From an uncultured candidatus Brocadiaceae bacterium (GTDB lineage: Bacteria; Planctomycetota; UBA1135; UBA2386), in contig CAYQMF010000015.1 of the NCBI GenBank assembly GCA_964418595.1, positions 5,756-69,755 on the forward strand: a DNA stretch of 64,000 bases. The letters run 5' to 3'. Both the position numbers and the translations under genes were made by a program. Of this stretch, positions 14,091-32,835 are shown piece after piece. The number at the start of each line of letters is the position of its first letter. Position 1 is the first letter of the stretch. The notes under the pieces are model-generated. The model did no database searches. It saw only the letters and a list, made by a program, of their open reading frames with translations, and was not told where the DNA came from.

Positions 14091-14219
14091 GCTTCCCACC
14101 ACGTCTCGGCATCTCGTCTCCCCCGGGTACGGCGACCTGCGCGGGTTACCGCGTCCCGCCCGCCTGATATGAAGGTCGAGGCGCGCGTTCCTCGGTGCCC
14201 GACTCTCTCCCCGCTGCCC

Positions 14220-17200: not shown

Positions 17201-18038
17201 CGGCTGGCAGATCGCGCTTACCGTCACGTCGTCGTCGGTGCCGTATTTCCGGGTCTACTCTGCGGGCGGCGTCGCCAACGGCCAGATCCGCCGCGTGACC
17301 CCGGGCTCGTCGCAGTGGAGCCGGGCGAGCGGCGGCATCAATCCGGTCACCGGGCAGCCGACCGCCTTCGGCGACAACTCCTTCTACTGGATCCAGACCG
17401 ACTTCCTGAAGCGGCAGTCGGTGGTGACCGCGGGGTTCGTCGATCTGCTCGACCCGCACCGCGTCGATCCGGCCTTCCCCAACCGTGATCCACGCCTCGG
17501 CCCGTACTTCCCGGCGGGTGCGACGAGCGTGATGCCGCGCGGCACGGCGCCGATGTTCACCACGCTCTTCGAGCCGTCGCTCGACTCGCTGCCGGGCGGG
17601 ACGGAGATCGTGCCGCAGTACCGCGGTGCGAGCATCGTCGACCCGCGGCCGTGGATCGCCGTCGAGTGCGCGTTCCCGTTCTGGACGCGGCGCAACCAGG
17701 TGCGGCCCGACAACCTCAACTTCCCGCTCGATCCGCGCAAGGCGGGGGATGCCGGCATCCGCAAGTACAGCGACCAGTTCAACGCGAGCAACCAGGCGCG
17801 CAACTTCTGGACGCACACCTACAACCTGCACGTCACCGACTACGTGGACGATCCCAATCGTCTGGCGGAGGACGGTTTCCTCGCCAGGTTCGCGGGTCCG
17901 GCCGACTCCTTCCGCGCCAACGAAGTGCGCTACGCCAACTGGCGCTTCATCATGAAGAACAACGTCGAGTCGACGCCGCCGGTGGCACCGAGCCTCGAGT
18001 CGTTCGCGCTGCTGTATCGCTTCCAGGAAACGCGCTGA
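14220..18038 (+). CDS. very large lipoprotein of unknown function (about 1270 aa) with Ig-like (SbsA_Ig/Big-type) segments
   Basis: Lipobox 'LLLLTLLPLTAGCGGGGG' at an internal ATG. Segments such as 'IRVTFTRDLGIDTSFF' and 'VIVRFSKPIDIHSVRAQDSLFFA' resemble bacterial Ig-like domains. Normal composition over 3.8 kb. Confidence 0.7.
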   Translation: MRETNRRFSLLLLTLLPLTAGCGGGGGNAPGLGAGGTTAVLAVEYGSLVDVYGFRRTAAGGFGTALVAQDVLIGADIVDERDGANRNKRDNEILYDFLAANPDNLQPRLLITREIGTPEFERAFDALDDRVRRVGPGRFGQDTTQSPFTVVPRNGAIRVTFTRDLGIDTSFFYEMQNGQIVGVKNSEAIQVLRIVGDPNDANTTGDFEVIPARFVPRGAQLIIDPVLLGSEGVRLQVRNQAGGLPEAADQVGANIRLAFAIEGPLGIPSLRRDDEAQLTGLNNGGSKSVIRDFRSGNSLDDTAEISRGFRRDPVPPRLVGEMLMYLERVEDVDAFTQLLTIYKGSVAHRIDAGDALRIVSADGLATQLAVTEIVADPRDRKELTHTLVLVRREPALAAADPAKMPGYPADRVEREQWLPQFAPRAVVVAEYESGDGGAGSDDPQYFVRFSPSPIAGAGGAQVPNRDISPFAAVIVRFSKPIDIHSVRAQDSLFFATKPLTGTRGEEAIQQFLTDSVMDPASFDRNKFVTPHLVVGRRFDEDGSQTTVRLQPPLGFYLDDELRLPQNEAFRTYYLHILGGQKGIKDLAGNELDFLADAGRLQDSILVDFTLDVRNDARGQPLFPNNRVVNVARRFEAIDEDEQPSYYRSDEIRRVGGQANDKAYPLEDLFGAVNYFAGRIHARPSARISRVADDLNQQPPPSQDSELRWCPESDGGEAQIAANTAGTKFGQPIQNPLNPYGCRLMTVWREIDLNLSRVDPFDFNLDLEEVHWAPHTNSTLVFDEFDRMSLFVGHSEYRAENCVGTQWALPYAIESSGLDPTFARNFARDTDTRGAPEPAGPRNPPEHVGYRDHYVVIDANLAFTEPNNVNRFHPLPPLEKPYFVWRDETLDVQGGVSRHSADVANGSRDWEPYIISPFLTGGGRFVTRTSNGQLSFNYGRWMNTRNFHLRSRTTVETITDGLVGAIALPLLGDFQMYPDAANLPEGRGYVASGANGWQIALTVTSSSVPYFRVYSAGGVANGQIRRVTPGSSQWSRASGGINPVTGQPTAFGDNSFYWIQTDFLKRQSVVTAGFVDLLDPHRVDPAFPNRDPRLGPYFPAGATSVMPRGTAPMFTTLFEPSLDSLPGGTEIVPQYRGASIVDPRPWIAVECAFPFWTRRNQVRPDNLNFPLDPRKAGDAGIRKYSDQFNASNQARNFWTHTYNLHVTDYVDDPNRLAEDGFLARFAGPADSFRANEVRYANWRFIMKNNVESTPPVAPSLESFALLYRFQETR

Positions 18039-18047
18039 CCGACCCGT

Positions 18048-19490
18048 TCAGAAGGGGAGGTCTTCGGCGGCCACGGGCTCCGCGCGCGGCGTGATGCGCT
18101 GGTCGGCAGACCAGGAGTCGAACTCGAGGGCAAACGGATCGCCGAGCAGGCGCCAGCGGCCCGTTGTAGGCTCGTAGACCCCGCCCCAGTCCACGCGCAG
18201 GCCGGGCATGCCGCCGTGGGCCGCCAGGAAGCGCGCGCGGGCGCGGGCGCGCGTCGCCACCGGCGGGACCCACCGTTCGGTCTCGGTGCCGGCGGCCATC
18301 GGTGCGCCGACGCGGTGCTCGATGAGGCCTGACCCGACCATCGTGTCGAACACGCTCGTCGGATCGGTGATCGCGTGGTAGCTGTGGTCGATGAGGGTGA
18401 GCGCACGGAGACGCTGCGCGTCGCCCGGCAGCGTCGCCCAACTGCCGCCCATGTGCGTGAGCACGGAGTCGAACAGGCGCAGCTTGGCGAACGCGTCGAG
18501 CCGCCGGGCGAGCCACGGCTCGTCACCGCGCTGCATGGCGGCGAGGGTGTCCGCCCAGTCCTGCAGGCAGCGCGCGACCCACGGCGGCGCGTCGCGGCGG
18601 CGATCGGCCCACGCCCGCGCGAGGCCGAGGTACAGCGCCTGGATCTCGAGCACGATGCCGTGCACGCGCACCGCTTCGCCCGGGCCAGCGAGGCGACAGC
18701 ACGTGCGCAGGGTCTCCGCCCAGCTTCCGCCCAACGGCAGGCCGAGCCGTGCGCACGCAGCGGCGACCGCGGCCGGCACGCTCGGGTCGGCTTCGAGCGC
18801 GCGCAGCACCAGCGCGGTGGCCCCGTGCTGCAGCGCGAGGTTGAACTGCGATCGATGCCCGTCGCCGACCAGCAGGTGGCAGCGGTGGTAGCTGCGCTTG
18901 CCGGGCGTGTGGTGTTCTTCGCGGGCGGTGCTGAAGACGGCGCGGGCCGCGGTCGTCCCGCCTCCCGCGTCGTGGGTCATGAACAGGGGCCGCGTCGCCG
19001 CGAGCCGTTCGCCGCTGGGGAACAGCACGCCGCCGGAGCCGGCGTAGATGCGCGTGGCGAGGAACGGCAGCATGGCCGCGCCCAGGGTCGCGGCCGGTCG
19101 CGTCAGCAGGTAGTTCTCGTGCGTGCCCCACGTGTGCGCCTGCGGATGCAGGACGCCGTCGTGGTTGTTGGCGTGCAGTGACAGCACCAGACCATCGGCT
19201 GCGAGTTCGCGCACGGCGCGGGCGAGCAGCCCGACCTGCGCTTCGACCAGGAGCGCCAGCTCGTACGGATCGCTGCACTCCAGCGCCGCCAGCTCCGGGT
19301 GATCGTTGACGTCGACGTAGACTCGCCCGTAGGCGTTGAAGAACCCGCGGCCCACGTCCGGGAGCGAAGGCGCGTACGTCGCCATCAGGTCCAGCAGCCG
19401 CCGCAGCGCGGCAGGGCGTGGACCCGCCTGCACGAAGCACATCAGCTCGTGCTCCACACTCAGGAGGAACCTGGATCCGGGATCGGCCAT
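18048..19490 (-). CDS. Pup-ligase/deamidase family protein (PafA/Dop homologue, canonical motifs)
   Basis: Ordered family motifs: 'LLSVEHELMCF' (E-x-E), 'NAYGRVYVDVNDHPELAALEC', 'HTWGTHENYLL', 'LPFLATRIYAGSGGV', 'HRCHLLVGDGH'. Confidence 0.85.
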   Translation of the reverse strand: MADPGSRFLLSVEHELMCFVQAGPRPAALRRLLDLMATYAPSLPDVGRGFFNAYGRVYVDVNDHPELAALECSDPYELALLVEAQVGLLARAVRELAADGLVLSLHANNHDGVLHPQAHTWGTHENYLLTRPAATLGAAMLPFLATRIYAGSGGVLFPSGERLAATRPLFMTHDAGGGTTAARAVFSTAREEHHTPGKRSYHRCHLLVGDGHRSQFNLALQHGATALVLRALEADPSVPAAVAAACARLGLPLGGSWAETLRTCCRLAGPGEAVRVHGIVLEIQALYLGLARAWADRRRDAPPWVARCLQDWADTLAAMQRGDEPWLARRLDAFAKLRLFDSVLTHMGGSWATLPGDAQRLRALTLIDHSYHAITDPTSVFDTMVGSGLIEHRVGAPMAAGTETERWVPPVATRARARARFLAAHGGMPGLRVDWGGVYEPTTGRWRLLGDPFALEFDSWSADQRITPRAEPVAAEDLPF

Positions 19491-19498
19491 GGCTTCGC

Positions 19499-19702
19499 CT
19501 ACTGGCCGCTCGCGTTGCGGCGCGCGTTGAGTTCGCGCTCGACATCGACGCCGCTGACGCAGCGCTCGTGCGCCTGCTGCGCGATGGCATCGAGCGCTCG
19601 CACCTGCCGGAGCAGGCCCCCGGGTACCGGGGGCTCGGGATCGTGGTTGGCGGTCGTCGTCTGGGGACGCCGTTCGGCGCTGCGCTTGCGTTCGTCACTC
19701 AT
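19499..19702 (-). CDS. Pup/UBact-like small modifier (67 aa, C-terminal Gly-Gln)
   Basis: Fills the gap between the two ligase paralogues exactly (8-nt overlap upstream, 8-nt gap downstream). High GC3 codon usage. Polar, probably disordered N-terminus, helical C-half, and terminus '...ELNARRNASGQ*'. Confidence 0.7.
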   Translation of the reverse strand: MSDERKRSAERRPQTTTANHDPEPPVPGGLLRQVRALDAIAQQAHERCVSGVDVERELNARRNASGQ

Positions 19703-21359
19703 GGTGGGTTCCTCGCGTGGGTCGGGTCCGTGGGCTGCAGCAGGTCTCGCTCGGGCGCGACAGCTCGGGCCGGAGATCCTGCAAGGGGTGCGTCGTGTGC
19801 ACGGTGTCGTCCGCGTCGCTCAGGGACGCGAGGTCCATGACCTCGCGGGCGGCACCCAGCGCGTGCTCTGCCACCGCGCGACCGAGCCGGCCGGGGTGCG
19901 GCATGTCGACGCGGAGCCGGCGACCGAATCGCTCGTCGGTCAGGCTCAGCTCGACGTGGTCCCAGTCGACCGCCTCGATGTCGTCGGCGAAGCGCTTGAT
20001 GAGGCGGCCGCGCGTCCAGCTCCGACTCGCCTCCGGCCCATCGCGCAGGCACGCATCGATCTGCGCCCGGTCGATCAGCGGGTCGATGCGATCGTGTTCG
20101 AGCAGGCGCCAGATCGCGCCACGCGTCGGGTCGGTGTTGGTGAAGTCGTGGTCGAGCAGGCGCACGGCCGACGACTCGAGGCCTTCGCCCGTCCGCTCGC
20201 AGTGGCCGAGCAGGACCATGAGCTTGGCGGCCCAGTCGAGGTGGCGCGAGCACGCGGCGATGTCGCCGCGATCGGCGCGCTGCGCCAGCTCGACGATGCG
20301 GGGCAGGAGCTGCGCGGCGCAGGGCGCCACCGCGTCCTGGATCACGCCCTCCTCGACGAGGCGCAGCATCGCCTGCGCGATCTCGGCGACGTAGGCGCCG
20401 AGCGTCACCTGGCGACCGTCGGCGAGCGGCGCCGTCCCGCGCAACCGGCCGGACTCGAGGTCGAGCCCGAGGCTCCACGCACGCAGCGCCTCGACGGGCG
20501 AGGCGAGCAGGAGCTGGCCGTAGCCGACCTCGGCGGCGGCGAGGCAGCACTGCACGAAGCTCGTCATCAGCGCGCTCGAGACGAGGGCGAAGTCGAAGCC
20601 GATGAGGTGCAGCCGGTCGATGCCCTGCGCGTGCGGCTCGCGGCGGGCGTTGAGCAGGCCGCGCGAGAACGCCTCCGTCGTCGACAGCCCGCACACCCGC
20701 GACAGGTGGTGGGCGCGCGCGCTGAGGCTGAAGACCACCGAACCGTCGCGCAGCGGGAGCAGGTAGCCGCTGCCGAAGAACGGGACGGCGGCGGCGATCG
20801 CACTGGTGACGAAGCCGAGCACGCCTGGGTGACGCGGATCGACGATGAGGTCGTCGAAGAGCTGCGGTGCGATCGAGATGTTGAAGTGCGAGCCCCACGA
20901 GATCGACGGATCGAGGAGGTCGACGTTGGCGGCCGTCAGCAGGTAGCGCGTGCCCGCCTCGGCGTCTTCCTGGGCCTGCTGCCGCGCCGCCTCCGCGACG
21001 ACCAGCGTGCTCCAGCTCTGCGCGGCCACTTCGCACGGGCGATGCGTCTCCGCCGTGCACACCTCGACGTGCGCCATGTCGGAGTAGTAGCACTGGCCAT
21101 TCGACGGCCACTGGCGCAGGCAGTCGGTGGAACTCGCCGACGCGTACGACCCGCCCCAGTGGTCGCCCCGGCTCCAGCTCGAATCGCGCCGCGTGCGGCG
21201 TCGCCAGACGTTGCCTCCGACCCGCACGAAGGCCGTGTCGATGGCCCCGAGCACGCGTTGCGCCACGGTCCAGCTCGGGATCGCCTGGCCTCGGCCGTCG
21301 ATGCCGGTCGTCGACAGCTCGCAGTCGCGACCGACGAACTTCACGACGGGCGCGCTCAT
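19695..21359 (-). CDS. Pup-ligase/deamidase family protein (larger, divergent Dop-like paralogue)
   Basis: 'FVGRDCELST', 'NGQCYYSDMAHVEVCTAE', 'ISWGSHFNISI' (in place of HENY), 'VPFFGSGYLL', 'FSLSARAHHLSRVCGLSTTEAFSRGLLNARREPHA', 'DRLHLIGFDF'. Only the last 554 codons of the 802-aa track ORF are protein-like. The ATG overlaps the upstream stop (ATGA). Confidence 0.8.
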   Translation of the reverse strand: MSAPVVKFVGRDCELSTTGIDGRGQAIPSWTVAQRVLGAIDTAFVRVGGNVWRRRTRRDSSWSRGDHWGGSYASASSTDCLRQWPSNGQCYYSDMAHVEVCTAETHRPCEVAAQSWSTLVVAEAARQQAQEDAEAGTRYLLTAANVDLLDPSISWGSHFNISIAPQLFDDLIVDPRHPGVLGFVTSAIAAAVPFFGSGYLLPLRDGSVVFSLSARAHHLSRVCGLSTTEAFSRGLLNARREPHAQGIDRLHLIGFDFALVSSALMTSFVQCCLAAAEVGYGQLLLASPVEALRAWSLGLDLESGRLRGTAPLADGRQVTLGAYVAEIAQAMLRLVEEGVIQDAVAPCAAQLLPRIVELAQRADRGDIAACSRHLDWAAKLMVLLGHCERTGEGLESSAVRLLDHDFTNTDPTRGAIWRLLEHDRIDPLIDRAQIDACLRDGPEASRSWTRGRLIKRFADDIEAVDWDHVELSLTDERFGRRLRVDMPHPGRLGRAVAEHALGAAREVMDLASLSDADDTVHTTHPLQDLRPELSRPSETCCSPRTRPTRGTHHE

Positions 21360-23152
21360 GCGTGTTCTCCCGCTGCACGGTCTCCCACGGCCCGTTCTCC
21401 CACCACAGGCCCGACGAGATCGCGTTGCCAGCCGACTTCGTCGCGCGGCACGGTCTCGACGCGCTGGATGCGGCCGCGGACCCGCAGCAGGCGCTGCAGC
21501 GTGATCCAGTCGGCCTCCATCGCGCTCGCGGCTGCGCAGGCCTGATCGACGAGACCGGCGACGACGTCGTCGAGGCCGACTGCGCCGAAGCCGATGCCGC
21601 TGCGGCGGCGCCGCGCGCCGCGCAGCTTGGCCTGGCTCATCGCTTCGCGGTAGTGCACCGCGGACAGCAGCGTGCCCGCGGTGACGTCGATGCTGCGCTG
21701 CGGCTCGGTGCCGTAGCGCAGCACGACGGTGTCCAGGATGGTCGCAAGCGCGGGCCGCAGGATCGTGGCCTCGAGCACCGCGGGGGCGACGCCGTGGCGC
21801 ACGTCGCCATCGATCAGCCAGGGCACCTCGGCGGGCGCGTACACGGCCATGACCTTCGCCGCGGCCTCGGCGCCGAGCGGCGGCATCTCGAGGACGAGGT
21901 CGCCGAGGCGACCGGGCCGCTTCAGCGCCGGATCGACGGCGTCGGGGCGGTTGGTGAGGCCGAGCCACAGCACATGGGCGCGCGGCGTGGCCTCGGTGCG
22001 GACGAGCCCGTCCAGTTCGACGAGCAGGGCCTGGATCGCGTCGTTGTGCGCGCTGGACAGGAGCTCGCCGCCGTCGTGGCCCCCGGCACGCCGACCGAGG
22101 CAATCAATTTCGTCCATGACCACGATTTGGACGATGGGGCGCGTGCGCGGCACCGCCTGGCGCGCGCGGATGCTCCCGCACAGGTCTTCGCGCACGAGGC
22201 GCGCATCCTCGCCGTGCCACATCGACTTGAGCTCGTTGGGCTTGACCACGTAGAGCACGACGTCGAAGCCGCGCGTCGCACCGACGTCGCGCAGCCACGT
22301 GGCGACGAGACGCGTGAGCAGGGTCTTGCCCTCACCGGGCTTGAGCGACCACAGCAGCACGCCGTGCAGGGGTTCGAGGGCGAACTCGCCGCGGACGTCG
22401 TCCGCGAGGAGCCGCAACTCGATGGCCTCGAGCAGCGGTTCGAGCACGGGCTCGAGGCCGGCGACGTCCTCGGCGTCGACGGCGACGGAATCGATGCCGA
22501 CCTCGAAGCGGCTGTTGCTGCTGATGCTCGCCGCGCGCGCGATGGCCCAACCGGGCGCCTCACGGCTGAGGACGAGCCGGTCGCCGGGCCGCAGTGGTTC
22601 GTCGCGAAGGCACCGTGCGATCTGCACGATGTCTTCCTGCCCACCGACGCGGGCGACATGCACCTGCTCGCGCCCATCCGCATGCCAGCCGCGCATCTCG
22701 ACGACTTCGCCCAGGGCCCGCGCGCGCGCGCCGGCGTCGTCGGCGACGCCGATCAGCACCTGCTCCTTGGTGTGCACGCGCACCGGCTCCCAGGGTTCGA
22801 GGTCGCGGAGGCGGGCGATGTCGACTTCCGGGTGGATCGCGAGTTCGAGCACGTCGCCGCGCCAGCGCACCCGGGCGGCCGGGCCCTGCGGCGTGGTCAG
22901 CAAGCCCTCGCACACGCACAGCGCCGCCGGTCCGCGGAGCATGCCCTCGAGGATCTCGCGCATCTCCTTCGCCGCGGCCGCGGCCTGTTCGCACTCACGC
23001 CGGGCGCGCAGCCACCGCGCCGCGACGGTGACCGGATCCTGCGCGGCCTCCTGGAGGACGGTCTCGATCTCCTGGATCTGCGCGGGCGTCACGCGATCGA
23101 GGCGCACGCCGGCGAGGCGCAGGAGTTGGACGATGGTCTGTTGGTTGCTCAT
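21356..23152 (-). CDS. AAA+ ATPase, proteasomal-ATPase (Mpa/ARC/PAN)-like architecture
   Basis: N-terminal helical/coiled-coil region 'RECEQAAAAAKEMREILEGML'. Two OB-like segments ('ARVRWRGDVLELAIHPEV..', 'GEVVEMRGWHADGREQVHVARVGGQEDIVQIA..PLRPGDRLVL'). Walker A variant 'LKPGEGKTLL', Walker B 'IVVMDEID', 'KRPGRLGD'. Confidence 0.85.
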   Translation of the reverse strand: MSNQQTIVQLLRLAGVRLDRVTPAQIQEIETVLQEAAQDPVTVAARWLRARRECEQAAAAAKEMREILEGMLRGPAALCVCEGLLTTPQGPAARVRWRGDVLELAIHPEVDIARLRDLEPWEPVRVHTKEQVLIGVADDAGARARALGEVVEMRGWHADGREQVHVARVGGQEDIVQIARCLRDEPLRPGDRLVLSREAPGWAIARAASISSNSRFEVGIDSVAVDAEDVAGLEPVLEPLLEAIELRLLADDVRGEFALEPLHGVLLWSLKPGEGKTLLTRLVATWLRDVGATRGFDVVLYVVKPNELKSMWHGEDARLVREDLCGSIRARQAVPRTRPIVQIVVMDEIDCLGRRAGGHDGGELLSSAHNDAIQALLVELDGLVRTEATPRAHVLWLGLTNRPDAVDPALKRPGRLGDLVLEMPPLGAEAAAKVMAVYAPAEVPWLIDGDVRHGVAPAVLEATILRPALATILDTVVLRYGTEPQRSIDVTAGTLLSAVHYREAMSQAKLRGARRRRSGIGFGAVGLDDVVAGLVDQACAAASAMEADWITLQRLLRVRGRIQRVETVPRDEVGWQRDLVGPVVGERAVGDRAAGEHA

Positions 23153-23175: not shown

Positions 23176-24201
23176 TCAGTCGGAGAAGCTCAGCCAGGGG
23201 ATCGAGGCCATGCGTCCGCCGCGCCACGCATGCACGGCGAGCACGGGACGTCTGCCGGGTGCGCCGAAGCGGCGGCCGGCGATGGGGAACACGGTGGTCT
23301 TGCTCGGGAACATGGCCTCGAGCACCTGGTAGTCGTCGAGCGACACGTGCTCGCAGCTCGGCAGTGCGCACTCGGCCTTCTGGTTGCAGTTGCCGCAGTC
23401 CTTGCCCCATCCGTGGCTGTGGAACACGGTGAGCGGCCGCTCGCCGCGGCCACGCAGCGCGGCCAGCTCGCCGGCTTCGGCCATTGCCTCGGGGTCGAAC
23501 TGGAGGCTGGCGAACGATCCGACGTGTCGGGTGTCGCCGAGCGCCTCCGACAAGACGGTGACGATGCGGGTGCGCGTGCCCGGCAGCGGTTCGCTCAGCC
23601 GCAGGAGCGTGCCCAGCACGCAGCCACCGATCTCCGCCGAGCCGGCGGCCTCGGTGCGATCGACGATGTCAGCGACGGCCCGGGCGCACATGAGCACCGG
23701 GCGGTCCGCGGCGAGTCCGCCGTCGCCGAGCGAGACGACCCCGAGGTCCTGTAGCGTGCCGTCGCGCACCAGCAGCGGCAGCAGGCGGGGCGGACGGGGC
23801 GTTGCCGGACCGGGCGTGGCGGTGAGCACCGTGTGCACGCGCTGGCCGGCCGACACTTGGATCTGCCGCGCCTGCAGCATCGTCGACATGCGGCGATCCC
23901 AGCGACCGGCGTCGAAGCGCTGCGCGTGCTCCGCACCGCTCGCCGCCGTCACGGTCACGTCGAGGCCGAGCACGCGCTCGCCCGCCGCAGAGACCGGTTC
24001 GATGGCGATGCGCACCGGCTCGGGCTCGGTGGGCAGCACATCGGCGAGGACGCCGCTGGTCCAGGCCTCTTCGGCGACGTCGGTGATGTCGTCGGTCACC
24101 GGGAACCAGGCCAGCGCCTCGCCCCCGGTCGCCTCGGTGCGCAGCTCCACGGCGAACTGGTGGCGGCAGGACAGCTCGACCTCGACGGCGATGGCGCTCA
24201 T
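23176..24201 (-). CDS. JAB/MPN (JAMM) metallopeptidase domain protein with N-terminal unknown domain
   Basis: JAMM elements in order: 'AEIGGCVLG' (Glu), 'TVFHSHGW' (HxH), 'VSLDDYQ' (S..D). A Cys-rich insert 'CGNCNQKAECALPSCEH' lies between them. The ATG overlaps the Ubl stop (ATGA). Confidence 0.8.
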   Translation of the reverse strand: MSAIAVEVELSCRHQFAVELRTEATGGEALAWFPVTDDITDVAEEAWTSGVLADVLPTEPEPVRIAIEPVSAAGERVLGLDVTVTAASGAEHAQRFDAGRWDRRMSTMLQARQIQVSAGQRVHTVLTATPGPATPRPPRLLPLLVRDGTLQDLGVVSLGDGGLAADRPVLMCARAVADIVDRTEAAGSAEIGGCVLGTLLRLSEPLPGTRTRIVTVLSEALGDTRHVGSFASLQFDPEAMAEAGELAALRGRGERPLTVFHSHGWGKDCGNCNQKAECALPSCEHVSLDDYQVLEAMFPSKTTVFPIAGRRFGAPGRRPVLAVHAWRGGRMASIPWLSFSD

Positions 24202-24461
24202 GGCCTTCCCGCCGAGACCTCCGGCAGGACGGTCCAGCGCGCGTCGTCCGCGGGGACCTCGTGCAGCAGGCTCTTGTTGTCGAGGCGGCGGCCGCGGCTG
24301 AAGGCCAGCCAGCGCAGGCCGTGGTCGGGGATGTCGAGCTCGCTGCGGAAGAACTCGATCGCCTGGCCGACGGTGTGGTCGGGCGTGAGGTCGTCGCCGA
24401 CGACGGCGCGCACGCGCTTCTGCTGGCTGAGGTCGGTCATCTCGATGGTGGCGGTGGTCAT
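24198..24461 (-). CDS. ubiquitin-like (beta-grasp) small protein, 87 aa
   Basis: The size, its position between the E2 side and JAB, and a C-terminal half 'LAFSRGRRLDNKSLLHEVPADDARWTVLPEVSAG-RP' that aligns ungapped by eye with ubiquitin '[34 protein letters not shown]'. Confidence 0.6.
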   Translation of the reverse strand: MTTATIEMTDLSQQKRVRAVVGDDLTPDHTVGQAIEFFRSELDIPDHGLRWLAFSRGRRLDNKSLLHEVPADDARWTVLPEVSAGRP

Positions 24462-25270
24462 GACGTTGCGTCTCCTTGGTTGGGGTCGTGGTGGATCGGC
24501 GCGTGGCCGAGGATGGCACGCGCGTACCGCGCGCGGAGATCCGCGTCTCCGCACAGCAACTGCAGCGAGGGCGCGGCGTGCTGGGCGAAGGCGGCGATGG
24601 CGCGCACCGTGCGCGCCAGGAAGGCGGGGGTGACGTCGAGCGCGTCGAGGCGAGCCTCGGCGTGCAGCTCGTGGCCGTGCCGGTCGCTCGCCTGCAGGGC
24701 GAGGCGCGCGAAGCGCACGCGGCCGTTGACGCGCAGCGCCTGGTCGGCCGCGGCGTCGCGGGCGGCGTCGGTCGGCCACGACGTGATCAGCCGGTGGGTG
24801 AGGCGGAGGCCGGTGCCGTCGGGATCGATCGTCACCGGCCGCACGAGACCGTCCAGGCTCACCCGCACCTCGACGCCGCGCGCACGGGCCGCGATCGCGT
24901 CCGGTTCGAACCGGCCGGCGCGCAGCAGGGCCCCGAGCGCATCGGGGTCGCAGCTCGTGGCGGCGCCGGTGTCGGCAGTGAGGGGACGCGCACTCGCGGC
25001 GACCGCGAGCGCGTCCACGAGCGTCTCGGCGCGGCCGCGCGGACCCGGCGGCAGGTCGGCCACGATCCAATGGCTCGCGGTGAACGCGGCGACGCGCGCG
25101 TTCCCGGGCAGGCAGGCGGTGTGCAGGAGCAGCGACGTCGGATCCGGGCCCGGCATGCCGCGCGGATCGAGGGCGAGTTCGATCGCGTACCCGCCATCGA
25201 GCGTCGGCGTGATGCGCGGCCCCGGCGCATGACGACGGCGCCGCGGCGTGCTGACGGTGGGGGTGGTCAC
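24458..25270 (-). CDS. hypothetical protein (270 aa), possible YbjN/CesT-chaperone-like C-terminal half
   Basis: GTG start overlaps the E2 stop (GTGA) and its stop overlaps the Ubl ATG (ATGA). Normal composition. The pattern 'ALRVNGRVRFARLALQASDRHGHELHAEARLDALDVTPAFLARTVRAIAAFAQ' resembles chaperone-like alpha/beta folds (weak, by eye). Confidence 0.55.
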   Translation of the reverse strand: MTTPTVSTPRRRRHAPGPRITPTLDGGYAIELALDPRGMPGPDPTSLLLHTACLPGNARVAAFTASHWIVADLPPGPRGRAETLVDALAVAASARPLTADTGAATSCDPDALGALLRAGRFEPDAIAARARGVEVRVSLDGLVRPVTIDPDGTGLRLTHRLITSWPTDAARDAAADQALRVNGRVRFARLALQASDRHGHELHAEARLDALDVTPAFLARTVRAIAAFAQHAAPSLQLLCGDADLRARYARAILGHAPIHHDPNQGDATS

Positions 25271-25857
25271 GCGGCCCCCTTGCCCCACAGGGGCGTGGCG
25301 GCCGGCAGCGCGGCGAGGGCTTCGCGGCCTTCGGCGAACCACTCCGCCGCGTCGTGATCGGCGGGGTCGACGGTGCTGACGTTGGCGTAGGTGAGGATCG
25401 AATAGATGTGCTCGAGGAGCGTGGTCAGCTGCATCGGGCCGCGCGGCAGCGCCCCCAGGCACAGGATCCCGAACAGGCGCGAGTAGTTGGGGTGCAGGAG
25501 CCCGGTGTCCCTCCCGATCAGCACGCACACCGACGGCTGGTCGAGGCCGGCCTCGAACGGATCGGCGCGGTAGACGATGGTGCCGCGCAGGGGACCTGCG
25601 GCGACGTCGACGCCTTCGCCGGGGCGGTGCTGGCGCAGGTAGGGGATCGCGAGCGTGAAGTCGAGGACACGCCGTGCGGGCAGGTGCGGCTCGATGCGCA
25701 GCTTCGGCGCGCCGCTGAGCAGCGGCTGGGCCGCGTCCCAGTTGCCCGCGAAGAACTCGGCAGCGAGCTGGGTGATGGGCGCGTCGGCTTCGGTGGACGG
25801 CTCCAGGAGAGAGAGCCGCCGCAGGAGGTCGGCGAGGTCGGGCGTCTGGTCGGTCAT
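25267..25857 (-). CDS. E2 (UBC-fold) ubiquitin-conjugating-enzyme-like protein
   Basis: 'DTGLLHPNYSRLFGILCLGALPRG' carries the HPN triad, with a Cys 9 residues after the Asn as in eukaryotic E2s. The ATG overlaps the E1 stop (ATGA). Confidence 0.7.
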   Translation of the reverse strand: MTDQTPDLADLLRRLSLLEPSTEADAPITQLAAEFFAGNWDAAQPLLSGAPKLRIEPHLPARRVLDFTLAIPYLRQHRPGEGVDVAAGPLRGTIVYRADPFEAGLDQPSVCVLIGRDTGLLHPNYSRLFGILCLGALPRGPMQLTTLLEHIYSILTYANVSTVDPADHDAAEWFAEGREALAALPAATPLWGKGAA

Positions 25858-27080
25858 TCGAGAAGGCCTCGTTGGGCAAAGGGCGTGTGCGCAGGGCGGA
25901 GCAGGAGATCGGTGCGCGTTGCGCCGGCGCGGGCGACGACCAGGGCGCCGTCGGGGATGCCGAGCGCGGCGAGGGGCGCATCGAGGATCCGCAGGTGCGC
26001 CGCTTGCGCGGCGCCGATCGACGCGAGCAGGGCGTCGCGCCGCCAGTACATCGCTCGGCCGCAGCGCGGGCAGGCCGGCGGGGTCGACCACACGCACGCG
26101 GGCTGCACGACACCGCTGCCGCAGGAGCAGGCGGCAGCCAGCGCCAGCGGAGCGGCGAGCGGAGTCAGGGTCGGGTCCGGCGCGCGCAGGAGGTCGCGCG
26201 CCTTGGCGAACAACCCGCGCAGGGTGATCTCCGCCGTGGTCGACGCGAGCGCGACCGCGGTGATCGGCGCATGGTCGCCGAGGCAACGGGCGCTGCGCGC
26301 CAGCGCGAGCGTGTGCAGCACGCCGCCGGTGAGGTCGAGGAGGGTCTCGTGGTCGAGCGCCCGCTCGCGGTCGCGGCCGCCGACCAACCGTTGCGCCTGC
26401 AGCAGACCGAGGCCGACGACGGCCAGCGTCGTCGCCATGCCGGCCAGCGTCGGCGCGCGGCCTTCCGCGCCATCGTCGGCGCGGCCGCCGGGACAAGGCG
26501 TCGGTGGTCCGCCGACGAGGTCTTCGACGCCGTACGAGCAGAGCTGGCAGGCGTGGCCGCCCCCGCCGTGCGACACGAGGACGCGGCCCATCTCGCGCGT
26601 ACCCGTGCCATCGACGGCCAGCCGGACCAGCGGGATCGCGGCGGCGTTGGAGATCGACGTCAGGTGCCGAGCGAGGCCGCCGGCGTCGGTGCAGTCCACG
26701 ATCAGATCGCAGGCGGCGAGCACGCCGTAGCCGACGCCACGCACGTCGATCGGGAGCGCGAAGGCCCGGCCGGGCTCGATCGCGTCGCACGCGTCGACCA
26801 CGGCGTCGACCTTGCGGCGTCCCACCGCCGCGATGGGGACGGCCTGTGTGCCGACGTTGTGGGCCTCGACCCGATCCGCATCGATCGCGAGCACCACCGC
26901 GCCGCTGCGCACGACCGCCAGCGCGAAGTGCGAGCCCAGCGCCCCGGCGCCGATGATCGCGATGCGTGCCGTGCGCCAGCGAGCGAACGGATCGCCCGTG
27001 AGCAGTGAGGTGCCACGCACCCGCGCCAGGCGGTCGCTCGCGGGTGCGGCCACGGGCATGGCGTGCAGCTCAGCGCGCAT
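25854..27080 (-). CDS. ThiF/MoeB/E1-like adenylyltransferase (ubiquitin-activating-enzyme-like)
   Basis: 'ARIAIIGAGALGSHFALAVVRSGAVVLAIDADRVEAHNVGTQ' (Rossmann GxGxxG plus DxD..N), 'DLIVDCTD', and Cys pairs 'CQLC' and 'CPRC'. The ATG at 27080 overlaps the upstream stop by 11 nt (alternative ATG at 27059). Confidence 0.85.
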   Translation of the reverse strand: MRAELHAMPVAAPASDRLARVRGTSLLTGDPFARWRTARIAIIGAGALGSHFALAVVRSGAVVLAIDADRVEAHNVGTQAVPIAAVGRRKVDAVVDACDAIEPGRAFALPIDVRGVGYGVLAACDLIVDCTDAGGLARHLTSISNAAAIPLVRLAVDGTGTREMGRVLVSHGGGGHACQLCSYGVEDLVGGPPTPCPGGRADDGAEGRAPTLAGMATTLAVVGLGLLQAQRLVGGRDRERALDHETLLDLTGGVLHTLALARSARCLGDHAPITAVALASTTAEITLRGLFAKARDLLRAPDPTLTPLAAPLALAAACSCGSGVVQPACVWSTPPACPRCGRAMYWRRDALLASIGAAQAAHLRILDAPLAALGIPDGALVVARAGATRTDLLLRPAHTPFAQRGLLE

Positions 27081-27663
27081 CGCGGCCCTCCTTCGCCATC
27101 GCCAGCAACTCGGCGAGGCGCGGGCCACCGCGGCGTGCCGGCGGGCGCCAGCGACGGGCGCGCGGGTCGAACCCGCACTGGTGGCAACGCAAGGTCGGCC
27201 GCCACGCGGTGCGCTTGAACATGCCCGCGCACGGCGTCGTCGGCGTGCCGGGGCAGACCACGATCGGCTCGCCCGCGGCGAGTCGCGTCCGCGTGCGCAG
27301 GCAACGCTGGTCGTCGCCGTGCTGCGCCGGATCGTAGGTCGTCTCCACGGGTTCCGTGTCGGCCGAGACCCACGTCGGGTGGCCGCCCATGTCGATGCGA
27401 TCGCCGTGCCGCAGGACGTGCAGCCCGATGCCCGCCGGCGTGCCGTTGATCGTCACGCCGCCGCCGAGGTCAGCCGGCACGAGGAGCGCACCGACGGTGC
27501 GCCCGCGGCGGGCGGCGAACACGGTCGCGTGGTGCGCCGCGTCCTGCGGGTCTTGGACCGCGACGCCGGTGGCGGCGATACCGACGATGCGACCGACGAC
27601 CTGCTCCGTGCCGCCGTCGCCGTACCAGAGCGTGACCTGCGTGATCGGAGTTTGCGGGTTCAT
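27070..27663 (-). CDS. FHA-domain protein with C-terminal Cys-rich zinc-ribbon-like segment
   Basis: FHA-like 'VVGR...AAHHATVFAARRG...LLVPADLGGGVTINGTP...HVLRHGDRIDMGG'. C-terminal 'CLRTRTRLAAGEPIVVCPGTPTTPCAGMFKRTAWRPTLRCHQCGF'. The ATG overlaps the upstream stop (ATGA). Confidence 0.65.
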   Translation of the reverse strand: MNPQTPITQVTLWYGDGGTEQVVGRIVGIAATGVAVQDPQDAAHHATVFAARRGRTVGALLVPADLGGGVTINGTPAGIGLHVLRHGDRIDMGGHPTWVSADTEPVETTYDPAQHGDDQRCLRTRTRLAAGEPIVVCPGTPTTPCAGMFKRTAWRPTLRCHQCGFDPRARRWRPPARRGGPRLAELLAMAKEGRDAR

Positions 27664-28259
27664 GGGGTGGCCTCGTCGGTGGAGTAGCCCTTCAACCGCG
27701 CGCGCACCGCGTCTGCCAGAGACGGGTCGGCGAGCGCCTTCACGTACCGATCCACGTACGCCTGCAAGATCGGCGACATCGGCACCTGCCCGAGCCCGGG
27801 CACGCGCAGCGTCGCCGCGAGCCGGCCACCCTGTCGCTGCTGCACGAGGGGCGCGACGGAGTGGCCCGGCCACGCCCTCGCTGCCGCACGCGCGATCTTG
27901 GCGTTGAGGGTACGGATGTACGTGCCGACGCCTTCCGCATGGATCGGCACGGAGTGGCCGTCGAGGATCGCGAGCAGCGCGGCGAGCCCAGCCAGAGTCG
28001 GGCGGCCGCGGCGCCAACTCGGCCGTGGGTCGCTGGCGCGCGGGGTGACCGCGTCGGTGATCTCGACGAACAGCAACGCCAGCAGCAGGCGGGTGCAGCG
28101 CGCCGGGATCGCGACGCGCAGCGGCGGGCGTGGCTCGGTGGCGTGCACTTCCAGTTCGCCGCGACCGTCGTCGTCGATGCGCAGCGTGTAGGAGATCGGC
28201 GGAGTTGACGGCGAACGCGGGTCGGCGGAGCGTTTCATCGTGAGGATGAAGGTCCGCAC
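27660..28259 (-). CDS. hypothetical protein, possible OmpR/PhoB-type winged-helix (Trans_reg_C-like)
   Basis: First gene of the operon. 'LRVAIPARCTRLLLALLFVE....VGTYIRTLNAKIARAA' resembles the winged-helix recognition pattern (by eye only). An alternative start is ATG at 28238. Confidence 0.5.
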   Translation of the reverse strand: MRTFILTMKRSADPRSPSTPPISYTLRIDDDGRGELEVHATEPRPPLRVAIPARCTRLLLALLFVEITDAVTPRASDPRPSWRRGRPTLAGLAALLAILDGHSVPIHAEGVGTYIRTLNAKIARAAARAWPGHSVAPLVQQRQGGRLAATLRVPGLGQVPMSPILQAYVDRYVKALADPSLADAVRARLKGYSTDEATP

Positions 28260-29697: not shown

Positions 29698-29847
29698 GGC
29701 CGAGGCTCATGGGCCGCGAGGTTTTTCGAGATCGGATTGGATGATCGGCCTCCTGACGGCGCTATGGCGCCGGCACGATTGCGCGGGGCTTCCCCGACGC
29801 CTCGCAGGCACCTAGGATCGGCCACCCCTCGTTCCAGGAAGGACAGC

Positions 29848-32835
29848 ATGATCGCTCCCGTACCGTTGGTTCTCGCCGCCAGCCTGGCGGTGAGTGGGAC
29901 TTCCGTCGCCGCGCAAGGTCCGCGGCTCGATCTGCCGCAGCATCCCGTACGCTGGAGCCAGGACGTCGGGTCCGCGCGCAATCCCGCCCGCGCCGCCGTC
30001 GTGGTCACTGCCGACACCTACGACGCGCGACCGAACTGGGCGTTGCCCGCGGCGGCGGCCGCGGGCGACCTGGTCGGCAAGGCACTCGAGGAGGCCGGGG
30101 GATTCTCGAATGGCATCACCCGGGTGCACCGCGAGCGCGCGATCCCGTACTACGTGGAAGATGCGATCGTGGAGGCCGGCCGGAGCCTGACCCGCCCGGG
30201 CGTGCTGCTCGTGTATTGGCTGGGGCACGGCTGCGTGAAGAGCGGGCAGCAGGAGTTGTTCACGCATCACTCGAAAGATGTCGGCTCCGACTACGACCAG
30301 ACGATCGGGCGCGCGACGATCGTCCAGTGGCTGGACAAGGCGCGTGCCGAAGCCGAAGGACGCGGCGTGCGCCTCACGACCGCGTTGATCGTGGATGCCT
30401 GCCGCGTCGAGACCGCTGGTCCGCCCCCCAAGGCCAGACTGATCGCCAGCCAGACCTGGGAGGTCTACAGCACGGAGGAGGGCCACTTCGTGCCGGCCGG
30501 AAGCGGCGACGCGTTCCCGTTCAGCCACCAGTTCGCGGCGGCGATGCGCAGCCACGCGGAGCGCAACATCGTGGTCTCGCTGGTGGACGTGTTCCGTGAC
30601 TGCGACTACGAGACCCGTCGGGCGCCCGGTGGTCTGAAGCCGAAACTGATTCCCCCCAACGGGGATCTGACCGCGGCCGCGCCCGCGCTCGTCGTGCCGC
30701 CGCGCGTGGCGTTCACGTTGCGCGTCAAGGATGCCCTCGCAGACACTGCGGTGGCCGGCGCGGAAGTCGTGTTCAACGACCAGAAGATCCAGCTCGACGG
30801 TCCCACGTGCCAGCTCGAGGGTGGGGCGAGCCGGGACAGCCTCGTCAGCCGCCACAACCTCGTCATCAATTGCCGGGGCTATCTCTCCCGCGCCGATCGG
30901 GTCGAGCTGCGCCGTGAGCACACCGGCCGGGAGTTGACCATCGCGCTCCTCCCCGCGCTCTGCGTCGTCACCGGCAGGATCGAGCCGCGACCCAAGGGCC
31001 GCGTGCGCGTCGAGGCTTCGTCGATGGAGGGGATCAGGTCGGGCTTCCACGTGGCGGCTGCGCTCACCGATGCGGACGGAAGGTTCGAGTTGCGTCTGCC
31101 GCGGGTAACCGAGGGCAGCAAGGTGCGGATCGTCGCGGGCACGAAGTCGATCGCCGACTACGACATCCCGCGCACGACGCGGCTCGTGTCGGTTGGGGCC
31201 CACGATGGGATCAGCCTCCACGAGATGACCCTGAACCTGGGCTTGGAGGCCGGCGCCGCGCTCGGCGTGGAGGCCGTCATGAGCAAGCCGGCGGACGCAC
31301 CGGCGAAGGACCCGGAGTTCGCGAGTCGGATCGACCGCATCGAGTGGGGGTACGTGCTGGATGCCGTGCGCCTCGAGAACTTCGACCTCGCCGTGGAGCG
31401 CATGGCGCAGTTCAAGGGCAACGAGCCCGGACTCGACGCGTGGCGCACGTTCGTTGCGAGCCGCTGGGCTCCGGTCCGCTTGCGCGAGGGCCTGAAGGCC
31501 GGCAAGGCAGAGGGCGACTGGAGCAAGGCGGAGCAGGTCGTGACGTGGTTGAGTCAGCCGCGACGGGTCGCGCTGCCCAACGAGGTCGAGATCGAGGAAC
31601 TCGTGGCAGAGGTGACCCGCGAGAAGATGCCGTTGGCGGCGCGCCGGGCATACGAGGCGGGATACCAGGCTCGCCGTGAAGGCCGCCTGGAGGATGCACT
31701 TGCGGGCTACGTGGCTGCTCGCTCTGGCGTGAGCGCGCACTACCGCGCCGAAGTGGAGATGGCGATCGAGGATGTATCCGCCCAGCTCTACGAGCGGCAC
31801 AGCAGCGCCGGGTCGGATGCGGAGCTGAGCGGCGATTTCGAGAAGGCCCTGGCCGCCTACATGCGGGCGGCGGAGTACAACAAGCGCGCGGAGTGGAACG
31901 TCGAGCGGTTGCTGAAGGATCCACGGTTCGTGGGGACGGCGACGGGGCGCGCCGCGCTCGTGCGGCTCAACCGCGGCGCCGAAGTGTTCGGTTCGTGGAA
32001 CGTGAAGATCGTGGAGGCTTCGTTCGGCACTGTGTCCGGCTACCCGCGACGGGTCGAGGACCAGACCACGGGCATCGTGCTCATCCTGGTGGAGCCCGGT
32101 GAGTTCGCCATGGGCAGCACGGCCGACGCGAACAGCCGCCCCGTCCATCAGGTGCGGATCACCCAGCCGTTCTACCTGGGCGAGACGGAGGTGACCGTCG
32201 AGCAGTGGCGGCGCTTCGCGATGGCGAACCGCGCGAACCGTGACCTGGCGCGTGGCCTCGCCGACCCGCGCACCAACGCGCCGTGGAAGAAGGCGGTTGC
32301 GTGGGACGAGTCGCATCCGGTCGTCAACGTGCGGTGGAGCGAGGCCAATGCGTTCTGCCGGCACTTCGGCATGCGCCTGCCCACGGAGGCCGAGTGGGAG
32401 TACGCATGTCGAGCCGGAACGCCCGGTCCGTTCTGGTTCGGCTCGAACCCGAGCGACGGTCAGGGCAACGGCAACTTCTTCGGCCGCGACACACAGCGCG
32501 CGTCCGGACTGACGCAGGGGATGCCCTGGCCGTTCGAGGATGGACACCTGCTCACGGCGCCGGTTCGCAGCTTCCGCCCCAACGCGTGGGGCTTCTACGA
32601 CATGTCTGGCAACGTCGCCGAGTACTGCGCCGATGCCTACGACCCGCAGGCGTACTCCGGCAGGCGCGGTGAGGTCGTCGACCCGTTCGTGCAGGCGGGC
32701 CCGCAGCGCGTGTACCGCGGTGGCTCGTGGGTGCACGTGCCCACGGCCGCGACCTCGGCATCGCGGGTCGGGCGTGACCCGGAGAAGGGAACGGACTACG
32801 TGGGGTTCCGCGTCGCGAGGTCGGTGGGATCGTGA
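29848..32835 (+). CDS. secreted caspase-like (peptidase C14) - CarboxypepD_reg-like - TPR-like - FGE-sulfatase (SUMF1) domain protein
   Basis: Signal peptide 'MIAPVPLVLAASLAVSGTSVAAQ'. Caspase dyad 'LLVYWLGHGCV' and 'ALIVDACRVE'. 'TDADGRFELRLP'. C-terminal 'VEPGEFAMGS...RWSEANAFCRHFGMRLPTEAEWEYACRAGT...NAWGFYDMSGNVAEYC...YRGGSW...VGFRVAR'. Confidence 0.85.
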   Translation: MIAPVPLVLAASLAVSGTSVAAQGPRLDLPQHPVRWSQDVGSARNPARAAVVVTADTYDARPNWALPAAAAAGDLVGKALEEAGGFSNGITRVHRERAIPYYVEDAIVEAGRSLTRPGVLLVYWLGHGCVKSGQQELFTHHSKDVGSDYDQTIGRATIVQWLDKARAEAEGRGVRLTTALIVDACRVETAGPPPKARLIASQTWEVYSTEEGHFVPAGSGDAFPFSHQFAAAMRSHAERNIVVSLVDVFRDCDYETRRAPGGLKPKLIPPNGDLTAAAPALVVPPRVAFTLRVKDALADTAVAGAEVVFNDQKIQLDGPTCQLEGGASRDSLVSRHNLVINCRGYLSRADRVELRREHTGRELTIALLPALCVVTGRIEPRPKGRVRVEASSMEGIRSGFHVAAALTDADGRFELRLPRVTEGSKVRIVAGTKSIADYDIPRTTRLVSVGAHDGISLHEMTLNLGLEAGAALGVEAVMSKPADAPAKDPEFASRIDRIEWGYVLDAVRLENFDLAVERMAQFKGNEPGLDAWRTFVASRWAPVRLREGLKAGKAEGDWSKAEQVVTWLSQPRRVALPNEVEIEELVAEVTREKMPLAARRAYEAGYQARREGRLEDALAGYVAARSGVSAHYRAEVEMAIEDVSAQLYERHSSAGSDAELSGDFEKALAAYMRAAEYNKRAEWNVERLLKDPRFVGTATGRAALVRLNRGAEVFGSWNVKIVEASFGTVSGYPRRVEDQTTGIVLILVEPGEFAMGSTADANSRPVHQVRITQPFYLGETEVTVEQWRRFAMANRANRDLARGLADPRTNAPWKKAVAWDESHPVVNVRWSEANAFCRHFGMRLPTEAEWEYACRAGTPGPFWFGSNPSDGQGNGNFFGRDTQRASGLTQGMPWPFEDGHLLTAPVRSFRPNAWGFYDMSGNVAEYCADAYDPQAYSGRRGEVVDPFVQAGPQRVYRGGSWVHVPTAATSASRVGRDPEKGTDYVGFRVARSVGS

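Follow-up and report, generated by a model that had tools for sequence, protein, structure and literature searches.

What does a ubiquitin-conjugating enzyme (E2) with a eukaryote-type active site do in a bacterial operon, and is it an E2 at all? The question was raised by a gene in a stretch of 64,000 nt from an uncultured candidatus Brocadiaceae bacterium (Planctomycetota, UBA2386; contig CAYQMF010000015.1 of assembly GCA_964418595.1, positions 5,756 to 69,755), which as a whole is called the window here. The gene is on the minus strand, in one operon with genes for an E1-type activating enzyme, a ubiquitin-like protein (Ubl), a JAB/JAMM peptidase, an AAA ATPase and a Pup module. On the sequence-based evidence below, we consider it quite probable that the product of this gene is a true E2 with a UBC fold that forms a thioester, and that its family, which lies outside the curated libraries searched, has kept the canonical eukaryote-type active site.

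The gene and its active-site motif

The gene in question is the following.

25267-25857, minus strand: E2 (UBC-fold) gene, 196 aa, assigned by open reading frame (ORF) translation, profiles and an AlphaFold2 (AF2) model

The initial annotation had described a 196-aa protein with a His-Pro-Asn (HPN) motif and a Cys nine residues after the Asn, and the ORF translation bore this out. HPN comprises residues 122-124 (window 25486-25494) and Cys133 is encoded at window 25459-25461, so that the distance from Asn124 to Cys133 is 9 residues, within the 7-9 residues of canonical E2s. Loop 8 contributes Asp164-Pro165, encoded inside window 25357-25371. The gene overlaps that had been proposed were present in the DNA as well. 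On the plus strand, tcat at 25854-25857 is ATGA on the minus strand, where the E1 stop overlaps the E2 start, and tcac at 25267-25270 is GTGA, where the E2 stop overlaps the GTG start of the next gene. Identical 4-base overlaps were found on either side of the E2 gene in an orthologous locus (L001).

When the window was translated in all six frames, the pattern HPN-x(6-9)-C occurred a single time, at the E2 site, and mononucleotide shuffles of the window (71% GC) contained 0.44 occurrences on average. By itself, the bare motif thus falls short of significance, and the case for an E2 stands on homology and conservation. The shuffles would also suit a chance pattern in a GC-rich ORF that encodes no E2. 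This explanation is scarcely credible and was rejected on the basis of the Protein Data Bank (PDB) profile matches to E2s, the confident AF2 model of a UBC fold, the Foldseek results and the conservation of the motif in 55 homologues; in addition, translational coupling and synteny link the genes with those for E1, Ubl and JAB.

The E2 family and conservation of the active site

Only four relatives were recovered when 5.8 billion proteins were searched by a word index. When 1.8 billion cluster representatives were searched exhaustively with a profile, 21 relatives came up at E < 1e-10 and, beyond them, a more distant sister clade. No relative was found when the GTDB representative genomes were scanned with the four closest E2s. 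The two clades were homologous over their full length (hhalign probability 99.9%, E 4e-31). The nearest relatives all came from metagenome-assembled genomes (MAGs) of Planctomycetota; within this phylum, family members shared 30-58% identity and were found in the same operon every time.

Conservation was counted in one combined alignment of both clades (55 sequences).

His122: kept in 55/55 homologues
Pro123: kept in 52/55 homologues
Asn124: kept in 52/55 homologues
Cys133: kept in 54/55 homologues, the remaining sequence having a gap in this column
Gly135: kept in 53/55 homologues

Because HPN and Cys were kept across the 55 homologues and were aligned to the HPN and Cys of canonical E2s (see below), we regard the motif as real.

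The extreme C-terminus of the E2 (window 25267-25290, minus strand) was also conserved. Most family members stop exactly at a conserved ...(E)PLY, and the subgroup to which the window protein belongs ends in PLWGxGAA (alignments A3 and A4). This conserved PL[YW] at the very end might serve in docking.

Sequence comparison with known E2s

Family profiles matched canonical E2s in the PDB. With a four-sequence profile, Ubc1 and UBE2K ranked first and 'HPNYSRxFGILCL' was paired with 'HPNISSVTGAICL'; the 9-residue spacing between Asn and Cys agreed with the Ubc1/UBE2K alignments (HPNISSVTGAIC). With a 23-sequence profile, 43 of the 44 matches at E ≤ 1 were canonical eukaryotic E2s (best E 3.5e-5). 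The 55-sequence profile gave 114 matches, the best 60 of which were all E2s, and its alignment reached further upstream, with the family motif F-x-x-D-Y opposite the canonical FPxxYPxxPP. Profile alignments to canonical E2s ran through alpha3. H122-P123-N124 aligned to the HPN of Ubc1, UBE2K, UBE2H and UBE2D2, and C133 fell on the catalytic Cys in every hidden Markov model and hhalign alignment. When family profile A4 was compared with the UBE2D2 sequence (hhalign, E 1.4e-3), H122, P123 and N124 corresponded to H75, P76 and N77, C133 corresponded to C85, and D164-P165 stood opposite D117-P118. A profile of the sister clade retrieved a metagenomic protein annotated as UQ_con (E 2.6e-7). No solved bacterial E2 was among the PDB profile matches listed or among the best 50 Foldseek matches, and the hhalign comparison of A4 with Bil E2 (BilB) of E. 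aridi gave nothing (E 0.22, 17 unrelated columns).

A check against the Pfam models UQ_con and Prok-E2 had been proposed together with the initial annotation, and its outcome was divided. UQ_con matched 4 of 23 family members (best E 4.7e-4) and no other E2 model did so; the window protein itself matched neither. Prok-E2_A to Prok-E2_E had no match in the window protein, in the 23 family members or in 21 sister-clade and distant sequences. Since the window protein falls below the Pfam threshold and only 4 of 23 relatives match, we place the E2 outside UQ_con proper: judged by these profile comparisons, it is a separate family of the UBC superfamily, with UQ_con as its nearest neighbor.

Prokaryotic E2s that have the eukaryote-type oxyanion-hole Asn and are adjacent to RING E3s were reportedly noted by Burroughs and colleagues in 2011, so the HPN-Cys signature alone is not unprecedented.

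Predicted fold

The AF2 model of the E2, computed from a 27-sequence alignment, had a predicted local distance difference test (pLDDT) score of 87.5 and a predicted template modeling (pTM) score of 0.85; it replaced an earlier model from 4 sequences only (pLDDT 40.9). In order, the model runs from an additional helix (residues 8-18) through alpha1 (27-48) and the four main strands to the HPN loop with Cys133, after which come a crossover helix (144-155) and two C-terminal helices (168-176 and 178-183). A beta-hairpin (about residues 70-89) is inserted between the second and third strands. Thus, the N-terminal helix, four-stranded antiparallel sheet, active-site loop and crossover helix of the UBC fold were all modeled, as were alpha3 and alpha4, the two C-terminal helices that are absent in Cap2 and BubB. 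The best 50 Foldseek matches in the PDB were all canonical E2s (probability 1.00, target-normalized TM 0.5-0.7), so the proposed comparison of a model with UBC folds returned the UBC topology. Taken with the PDB profiles and the partner genes described below, these results support the initial view of a eukaryote-type E2 with a eukaryote-type active site.

The closest solved relatives, in sequence and in fold, are all eukaryotic canonical E2s, as would be expected had a eukaryotic E2 been acquired recently by horizontal transfer instead of descending within a native bacterial lineage. This origin is very improbable: identity to eukaryotic E2s is 13-24%, UQ_con misses the window protein, the family has spread to 30-58% identity inside Planctomycetota within a constant operon, and a deep sister clade exists in other phyla. 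Furthermore, the GC content fits the host, and the E1 encoded alongside belongs to the bacterial Cap2/MoeB type.

Cascade partner genes

The operon genes, all on the minus strand, were tightly packed or overlapping. The genes on either side of the E2 gene, among them those of the putative conjugation cascade, were as follows.

27660-28259, minus strand: 199-aa protein of no named family, with an orthologue in L001 only
27070-27663, minus strand: Cys-cluster protein, 197 aa, the first conserved operon gene (orthologue alignment; collinear in Planctomycetota loci)
25854-27080, minus strand: E1, a single-domain ThiF/MoeB-type adenylating enzyme, 408 aa (Pfam ThiF, 5.3e-16)
24458-25270, minus strand: YbjN/TY-Chap1-like protein, resembling type III secretion system chaperones that bind peptides, 270 aa (TY-Chap1, E 0.018, weak)
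24198-24461, minus strand: Ubl of the ubiquitin family, 87 aa, ending ...PEVSAG, with Gly85 at 24207-24209, and then the tail RP
23176-24201, minus strand: JAB/JAMM metallopeptidase, 341 aa (Prok-JAB, E 0.002)

The E1 carries GAGALG (residues 44-49) and a putative zinc site composed of CQLC (178-181) and CPRC (337-340). Its Cys196 (window 26493-26495, minus strand) is located 15 residues past the first CxxC and is followed by a conserved P-T-L. Cys196 was invariant in 11 orthologues from both clades, and it is the likely candidate for the catalytic Cys of the E1.

All Ubl orthologues finish in ...VSAG plus 0-2 residues, with an invariant terminal AG (alignment A7); in the sister clade, the last residue of the Ubl is Gly. 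Pfam ubiquitin or Rad60-SLD matched 3 of 7 Ubl members, and the Ubl profile matched ubiquitin-like chains in the PDB (best E 4.9e-4). The JAB protein has Glu190, HSH (261-263) and SLDD (287-290), which were conserved in its orthologues.

Two further proteins were conserved in the operon. The gene for the 270-aa YbjN-like protein keeps its place between the E2 and Ubl genes, and the YbjN/TY-Chap1 families matched 5 of 5 of its orthologues in both clades, one of them above the Pfam cut-off. Where no E3 is recognizable, this protein is a candidate substrate adaptor. The 197-aa protein has five conserved C-terminal Cys in the pattern C-x16-CPG-x7-C-x17-C-x2-CG[FY]DP, which may form a zinc ribbon or a treble clef. 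An FHA assignment of the same protein was discarded (E 0.029 in the window copy only; absent in three orthologues).

AAA ATPase and Pup module

Downstream of the JAB gene, the operon continued with an ATPase gene and a Pup module.

21356-23152, minus strand: AAA ATPase of the classical clade with a proteasomal-ATPase OB domain (Mpa/ARC/PAN/Cdc48-like), 598 aa
19695-21359, minus strand: Dop-like Pup_ligase (depupylase/deamidase), 554 aa (Pfam Pup_ligase, 4.5e-45)
19499-19702, minus strand: Pup-like protein, 67 aa, ending ...RRNASGQ, encoded between the two Pup_ligase genes
18048-19490, minus strand: PafA-like Pup_ligase, 480 aa (Pfam Pup_ligase, 3.1e-49)

The ATPase matched Pfam AAA and Prot_ATP_ID_OB_C, as well as NCBIfam pup_AAA (2.7e-33, under the cut-off of that model). 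In the PDB it matched VAT/Cdc48, and Mpa/ARC aligned across residues 65-445. The 554-aa Pup_ligase scored better as Dop (NCBIfam Dop 3.6e-38 vs. PafA 3.2e-24); the scores of the 480-aa Pup_ligase were 1.9e-34 for PafA vs. 5.6e-33 for Dop. No Pfam model, Pup included, matched the 67-aa protein, the C-terminus of which was conserved as R[RH]N[AST]SGQ in 4 loci. A small G[EQ]-ending protein adjoining ligases of the PafA/Dop family, the arrangement that marks a Pup system (PMC2588565), was thus found. The planctomycete Pup loci reported in 2008 lack proteasome genes (PMC2588565), which is consistent with the window operon.

The second Pup_ligase, 480 aa in the window, was much longer in some orthologous loci (L001, 10169-12025, 618 aa; L002, 16459-18819, 786 aa). 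The extra length may be the transmembrane insertion that Pup ligases of planctomycetes are reported to have (PMC2588565). In L001, a Reprolysin_5 metalloprotease gene comes next after this ligase gene.

Two plus-strand ORFs flank the operon region. A 1032-aa protein encoded divergently upstream (29737-32835) has a C-terminal FGE-sulfatase domain (formylglycine-generating enzyme-like; 8.8e-53) and an N-terminal region of ~780 residues without annotation. A 1289-aa ORF (14169-18038), with no Pfam match at E ≤ 1e-3, is convergent with the end of the operon.

Distribution of the operon

Further operon loci were found by a genome scan with the Ubl alignment. The order of ten genes (Cys-cluster protein, E1, E2, YbjN-like, Ubl, JAB, AAA ATPase, Dop-like, Pup and PafA-like) was identical in every locus of sufficient length (L001-L003, L009, L010, L015 and L016), and partial copies were found on four cut-off contigs. 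Identity of the operon proteins to those of the window was 30-65% for nearly all, and up to 84% for the Ubl. The ten-gene loci that carried a taxonomic label all belonged to Planctomycetota MAGs (Pirellulaceae, Planctomycetaceae, Pirellulales and UBA2386).

The sister E2 clade was found in MAGs labeled Deltaproteobacteria and 'Ca. Sulfopaludibacter', among others. Its loci L004 and L006-L008 share the core E1-E2-YbjN-Ubl-JAB-AAA and have no Pup_ligase gene; in L004 no YbjN-like gene was called, and the truncated L005 shares the start of the core. Because the sister clade keeps this core without Pup genes, the constant companions of the E2 are the Ubl cascade and the unfoldase, and the Pup module is an addition to the operon that is specific to Planctomycetota. 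After the AAA ATPase gene, at the position of the Pup module in Planctomycetota, sister-clade operons contain a second, short ThiF-family gene of 245 aa (L006, 12818-13555; L007, 10093-10830) and three unannotated genes (100, 269 and 252 aa).

The distribution also bears on whether the protein is an enzyme. A UBC-fold protein that binds Ubl or Pup and forms no thioester, acting as an adaptor of the UEV or RWD kind or as a scaffold on which the Pup ligases or the AAA ATPase assemble, would have parallels in the inactive, RWD-like UBC folds known from bacteria. It could dock by the PL[YW] end conserved in most members, in an operon that holds Pup as a second tagging chemistry independent of E2. 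Nevertheless, we consider such a role distinctly unlikely. UEV and RWD domains have no Cys, whereas here 54 of 55 members kept the Cys and 52-55 of 55 kept His, Pro and Asn. Moreover, the sister clade pairs the E2 with E1, Ubl and JAB and has no Pup genes; therefore, the E2 belongs with the Ubl cascade.

The characterized bacterial systems of E1, E2, Ubl and JAB serve in phage defense. The E1 matched the PADLOC Cap2 'E1-E2' models across its adenylation domain, in keeping with an E2 that works in a mobile anti-phage system, as in Bil or type II CBASS (cyclic-oligonucleotide-based antiphage signaling system), and that targets phage proteins instead of substrates of host proteostasis. This assignment is unlikely. 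The E2 and the other operon proteins had no PADLOC match except for generic E1 and AAA similarity, and neither a known defense gene nor a CapW or CapH-CapP regulator was among the genes called beside the operons examined. The only transposase seen was several kilobases upstream, in L008. Neighbors were mostly ordinary cellular genes (FtsA/FtsZ, sulfatase and phosphoglucomutase, for example), and the collinearity across Pirellulales-type MAGs looks vertical.

Assessment and proposed pathway

Several observations weigh against a catalytic E2 of eukaryotic type coupled to an unfoldase. No model of Pfam (E ≤ 0.1), NCBIfam or PADLOC, UQ_con and Prok-E2 included, matched the window protein. Its low identity to eukaryotic E2s (13-24%) is accompanied by a sequence-level alignment limited to the C-terminal two thirds. 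Within the 55-sequence family, Asn124 was replaced in 3 members (His in two and Gln in one), and the Asp164 column was divided in roughly equal shares among H, D, S and N. The solved sequences closest to the E1 were Cap2 and MoeB, and not the eukaryotic E1s. Every member of the family comes from metagenome assemblies. Finally, the operon contains no gene for an E3, a proteasome or a protease, which leaves what becomes of tagged proteins to conjecture.

On balance, the window protein is most likely a thioester-forming E2 that would serve the adjacent Ubl and feed the unfoldase; we infer its catalytic competence from the conserved residues and the predicted fold. The steps of JAB, E1 and E2 are proposed because of the established chemistry of E1 and E2 and the precedents of Bil and Caldiarchaeum. 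By analogy with BilC and CsRpn11, the JAB peptidase would trim the two residues (RP) that follow Gly85 of the Ubl. The ThiF-type E1 would then adenylate Gly85 and carry the Ubl as a thioester on Cys196, from which the Ubl would be handed to Cys133 of the E2. If the alignment with UBE2D2 is a guide, His122 would brace the HPN loop, Asn124 would stabilize the oxyanion and Asp164 would help to place the attacking lysine. More speculatively, the Ubl might be moved to target lysines, with the YbjN-like protein, the Cys-cluster protein or both choosing the targets instead of an E3. The presence of the Mpa/PAN-like AAA ATPase in the operons of both clades suggests that it engages tagged proteins, which it might unfold. 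In Planctomycetota, which add the Pup set (Pup ending in Gln, Dop-like and PafA-like), one unfoldase may conceivably read two chemically different tags.

A broader proposal is possible, if somewhat doubtful: that the E2 family and its sister clade are the bacterial lineage nearest to canonical eukaryotic and archaeal E2s, and that they define a 'ubiquitin-unfoldase' pathway (Ubl-E1-E2-JAB with an Mpa/PAN-like ATPase) that has been fused with Pup in Planctomycetota. If this is true, then two unrelated tags, one Gly-linked and of ubiquitin fold, the other the disordered Pup with its Glu linkage, would meet at a single unfoldase or even modify each other. In both deep clades, the E2 is always encoded together with an AAA ATPase of proteasomal type. 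The family would thus offer a tractable bacterial model for the coupling of ubiquitin-type tagging to ATP-dependent unfolding, which was central to how the ubiquitin-proteasome system arose, and the Planctomycetota operon would allow a direct test of whether ubiquitin-type and Pup-type tags cooperate, compete or cross-modify.

Comparison with known systems

We regard the E2 as a family of its own within an established superfamily, and the operon as a further variety of the ubiquitination-like systems of bacteria, although members may be listed by Burroughs et al. (2011). In the literature searched, which did not include PMC5938088, PMC2732565 and Burroughs 2011, no operon was described that connects E1, E2, Ubl and JAB with an AAA ATPase or with Pup genes. 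Bacterial E2-like families were described as 6a-6e, with the His kept in some and moved or lost in others (Iyer et al. 2006), and according to a 2024 review, bacterial homologues of the human E2s' catalytic domains are only isolated.

Canonical E2s (UBE2H, Ubc1/UBE2K, Rad6/UBE2A, UBE2D and Cdc34) have in common with the window E2 the UBC fold, both C-terminal helices and HPN and Cys in register. The window E2 differs from them by its additional N-terminal helix (8-18) and beta-hairpin (about 70-89) and by a shorter loop 7 after the Cys, without the W-S-P-A motif. It is also bacterial and operon-encoded, and its partner is a single-domain, Cap2/MoeB-like E1.

Bil systems of types I and II (BilA Ubl, BilB E2, BilC JAB and BilD E1) likewise have separate genes in one operon and an E2 that uses a catalytic Cys. 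Their Ubl has a short tail past the conserved Gly that is removed by the JAB, and the Ubl described here is also tailed. However, the BilB site is, by its published description, of the CEHH type, in which the Cys is followed by a His and HPN is lacking. Gene order differs as well, BilD contains an inactive and an active adenylation domain whereas the E1 of the window has one domain, and Bil operons lack the AAA ATPase, YbjN-like protein and Pup genes that are all found in the window operon.

Bub (6E/DUF6527) and the Cap2/Cap3 pair of type II CBASS likewise combine bacterial E1/E2-type conjugation with a JAB peptidase. Bub forms Ser/Tyr oxyesters and has no catalytic Cys, and the pair of C-terminal helices is missing from its E2. 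The features of BubB, Ser in place of Cys and no C-terminal helix pair, were not found in the window family, in which Cys is kept in 54 of 55 members and the helices are modeled. Cap2 is an E2-E1 fusion that conjugates CD-NTase, whereas the window E2 is free-standing, has the Cys and has a complete UBC fold. In Cap2, Bil and Bub, divergent E2 active sites are found together with links to phage defense and without wiring to an unfoldase.

The Caldiarchaeum/Asgard-type and bacterial operons of Ub-E1-E2-RING-Rpn11 (Nunoura 2011; Burroughs 2011; Hennell James 2017) also comprise a Ubl, an E1, an HPN-bearing E2 and a peptidase of the JAB/Rpn11 type. Their E2s were collected by means of the InterPro UBC signature, and those systems carry a small RING E3; none was found in the window operon. 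The latter has, in contrast, the YbjN-like protein, the Cys-cluster protein and the Mpa-like ATPase, plus Pup, Dop and PafA in Planctomycetota.

With the Pup-proteasome system (Pup, Dop, PafA and Mpa/ARC) and the proteasome-less Pup loci of Rhodopirellula and Plesiocystis, the window operon shares a GQ-ending Pup-like gene between two Pup_ligase paralogues and an adjoining Mpa-like ATPase gene; linked proteasome genes are absent, as reported for planctomycetes. The account of those loci reports linkage to a membrane protein, and the terms JAB, UBC, ThiF and E1-like are not in that paper (PMC2588565). In the window, by comparison, the operon has a ubiquitin-type cascade in its 5′ half and the Pup genes in its 3′ half.

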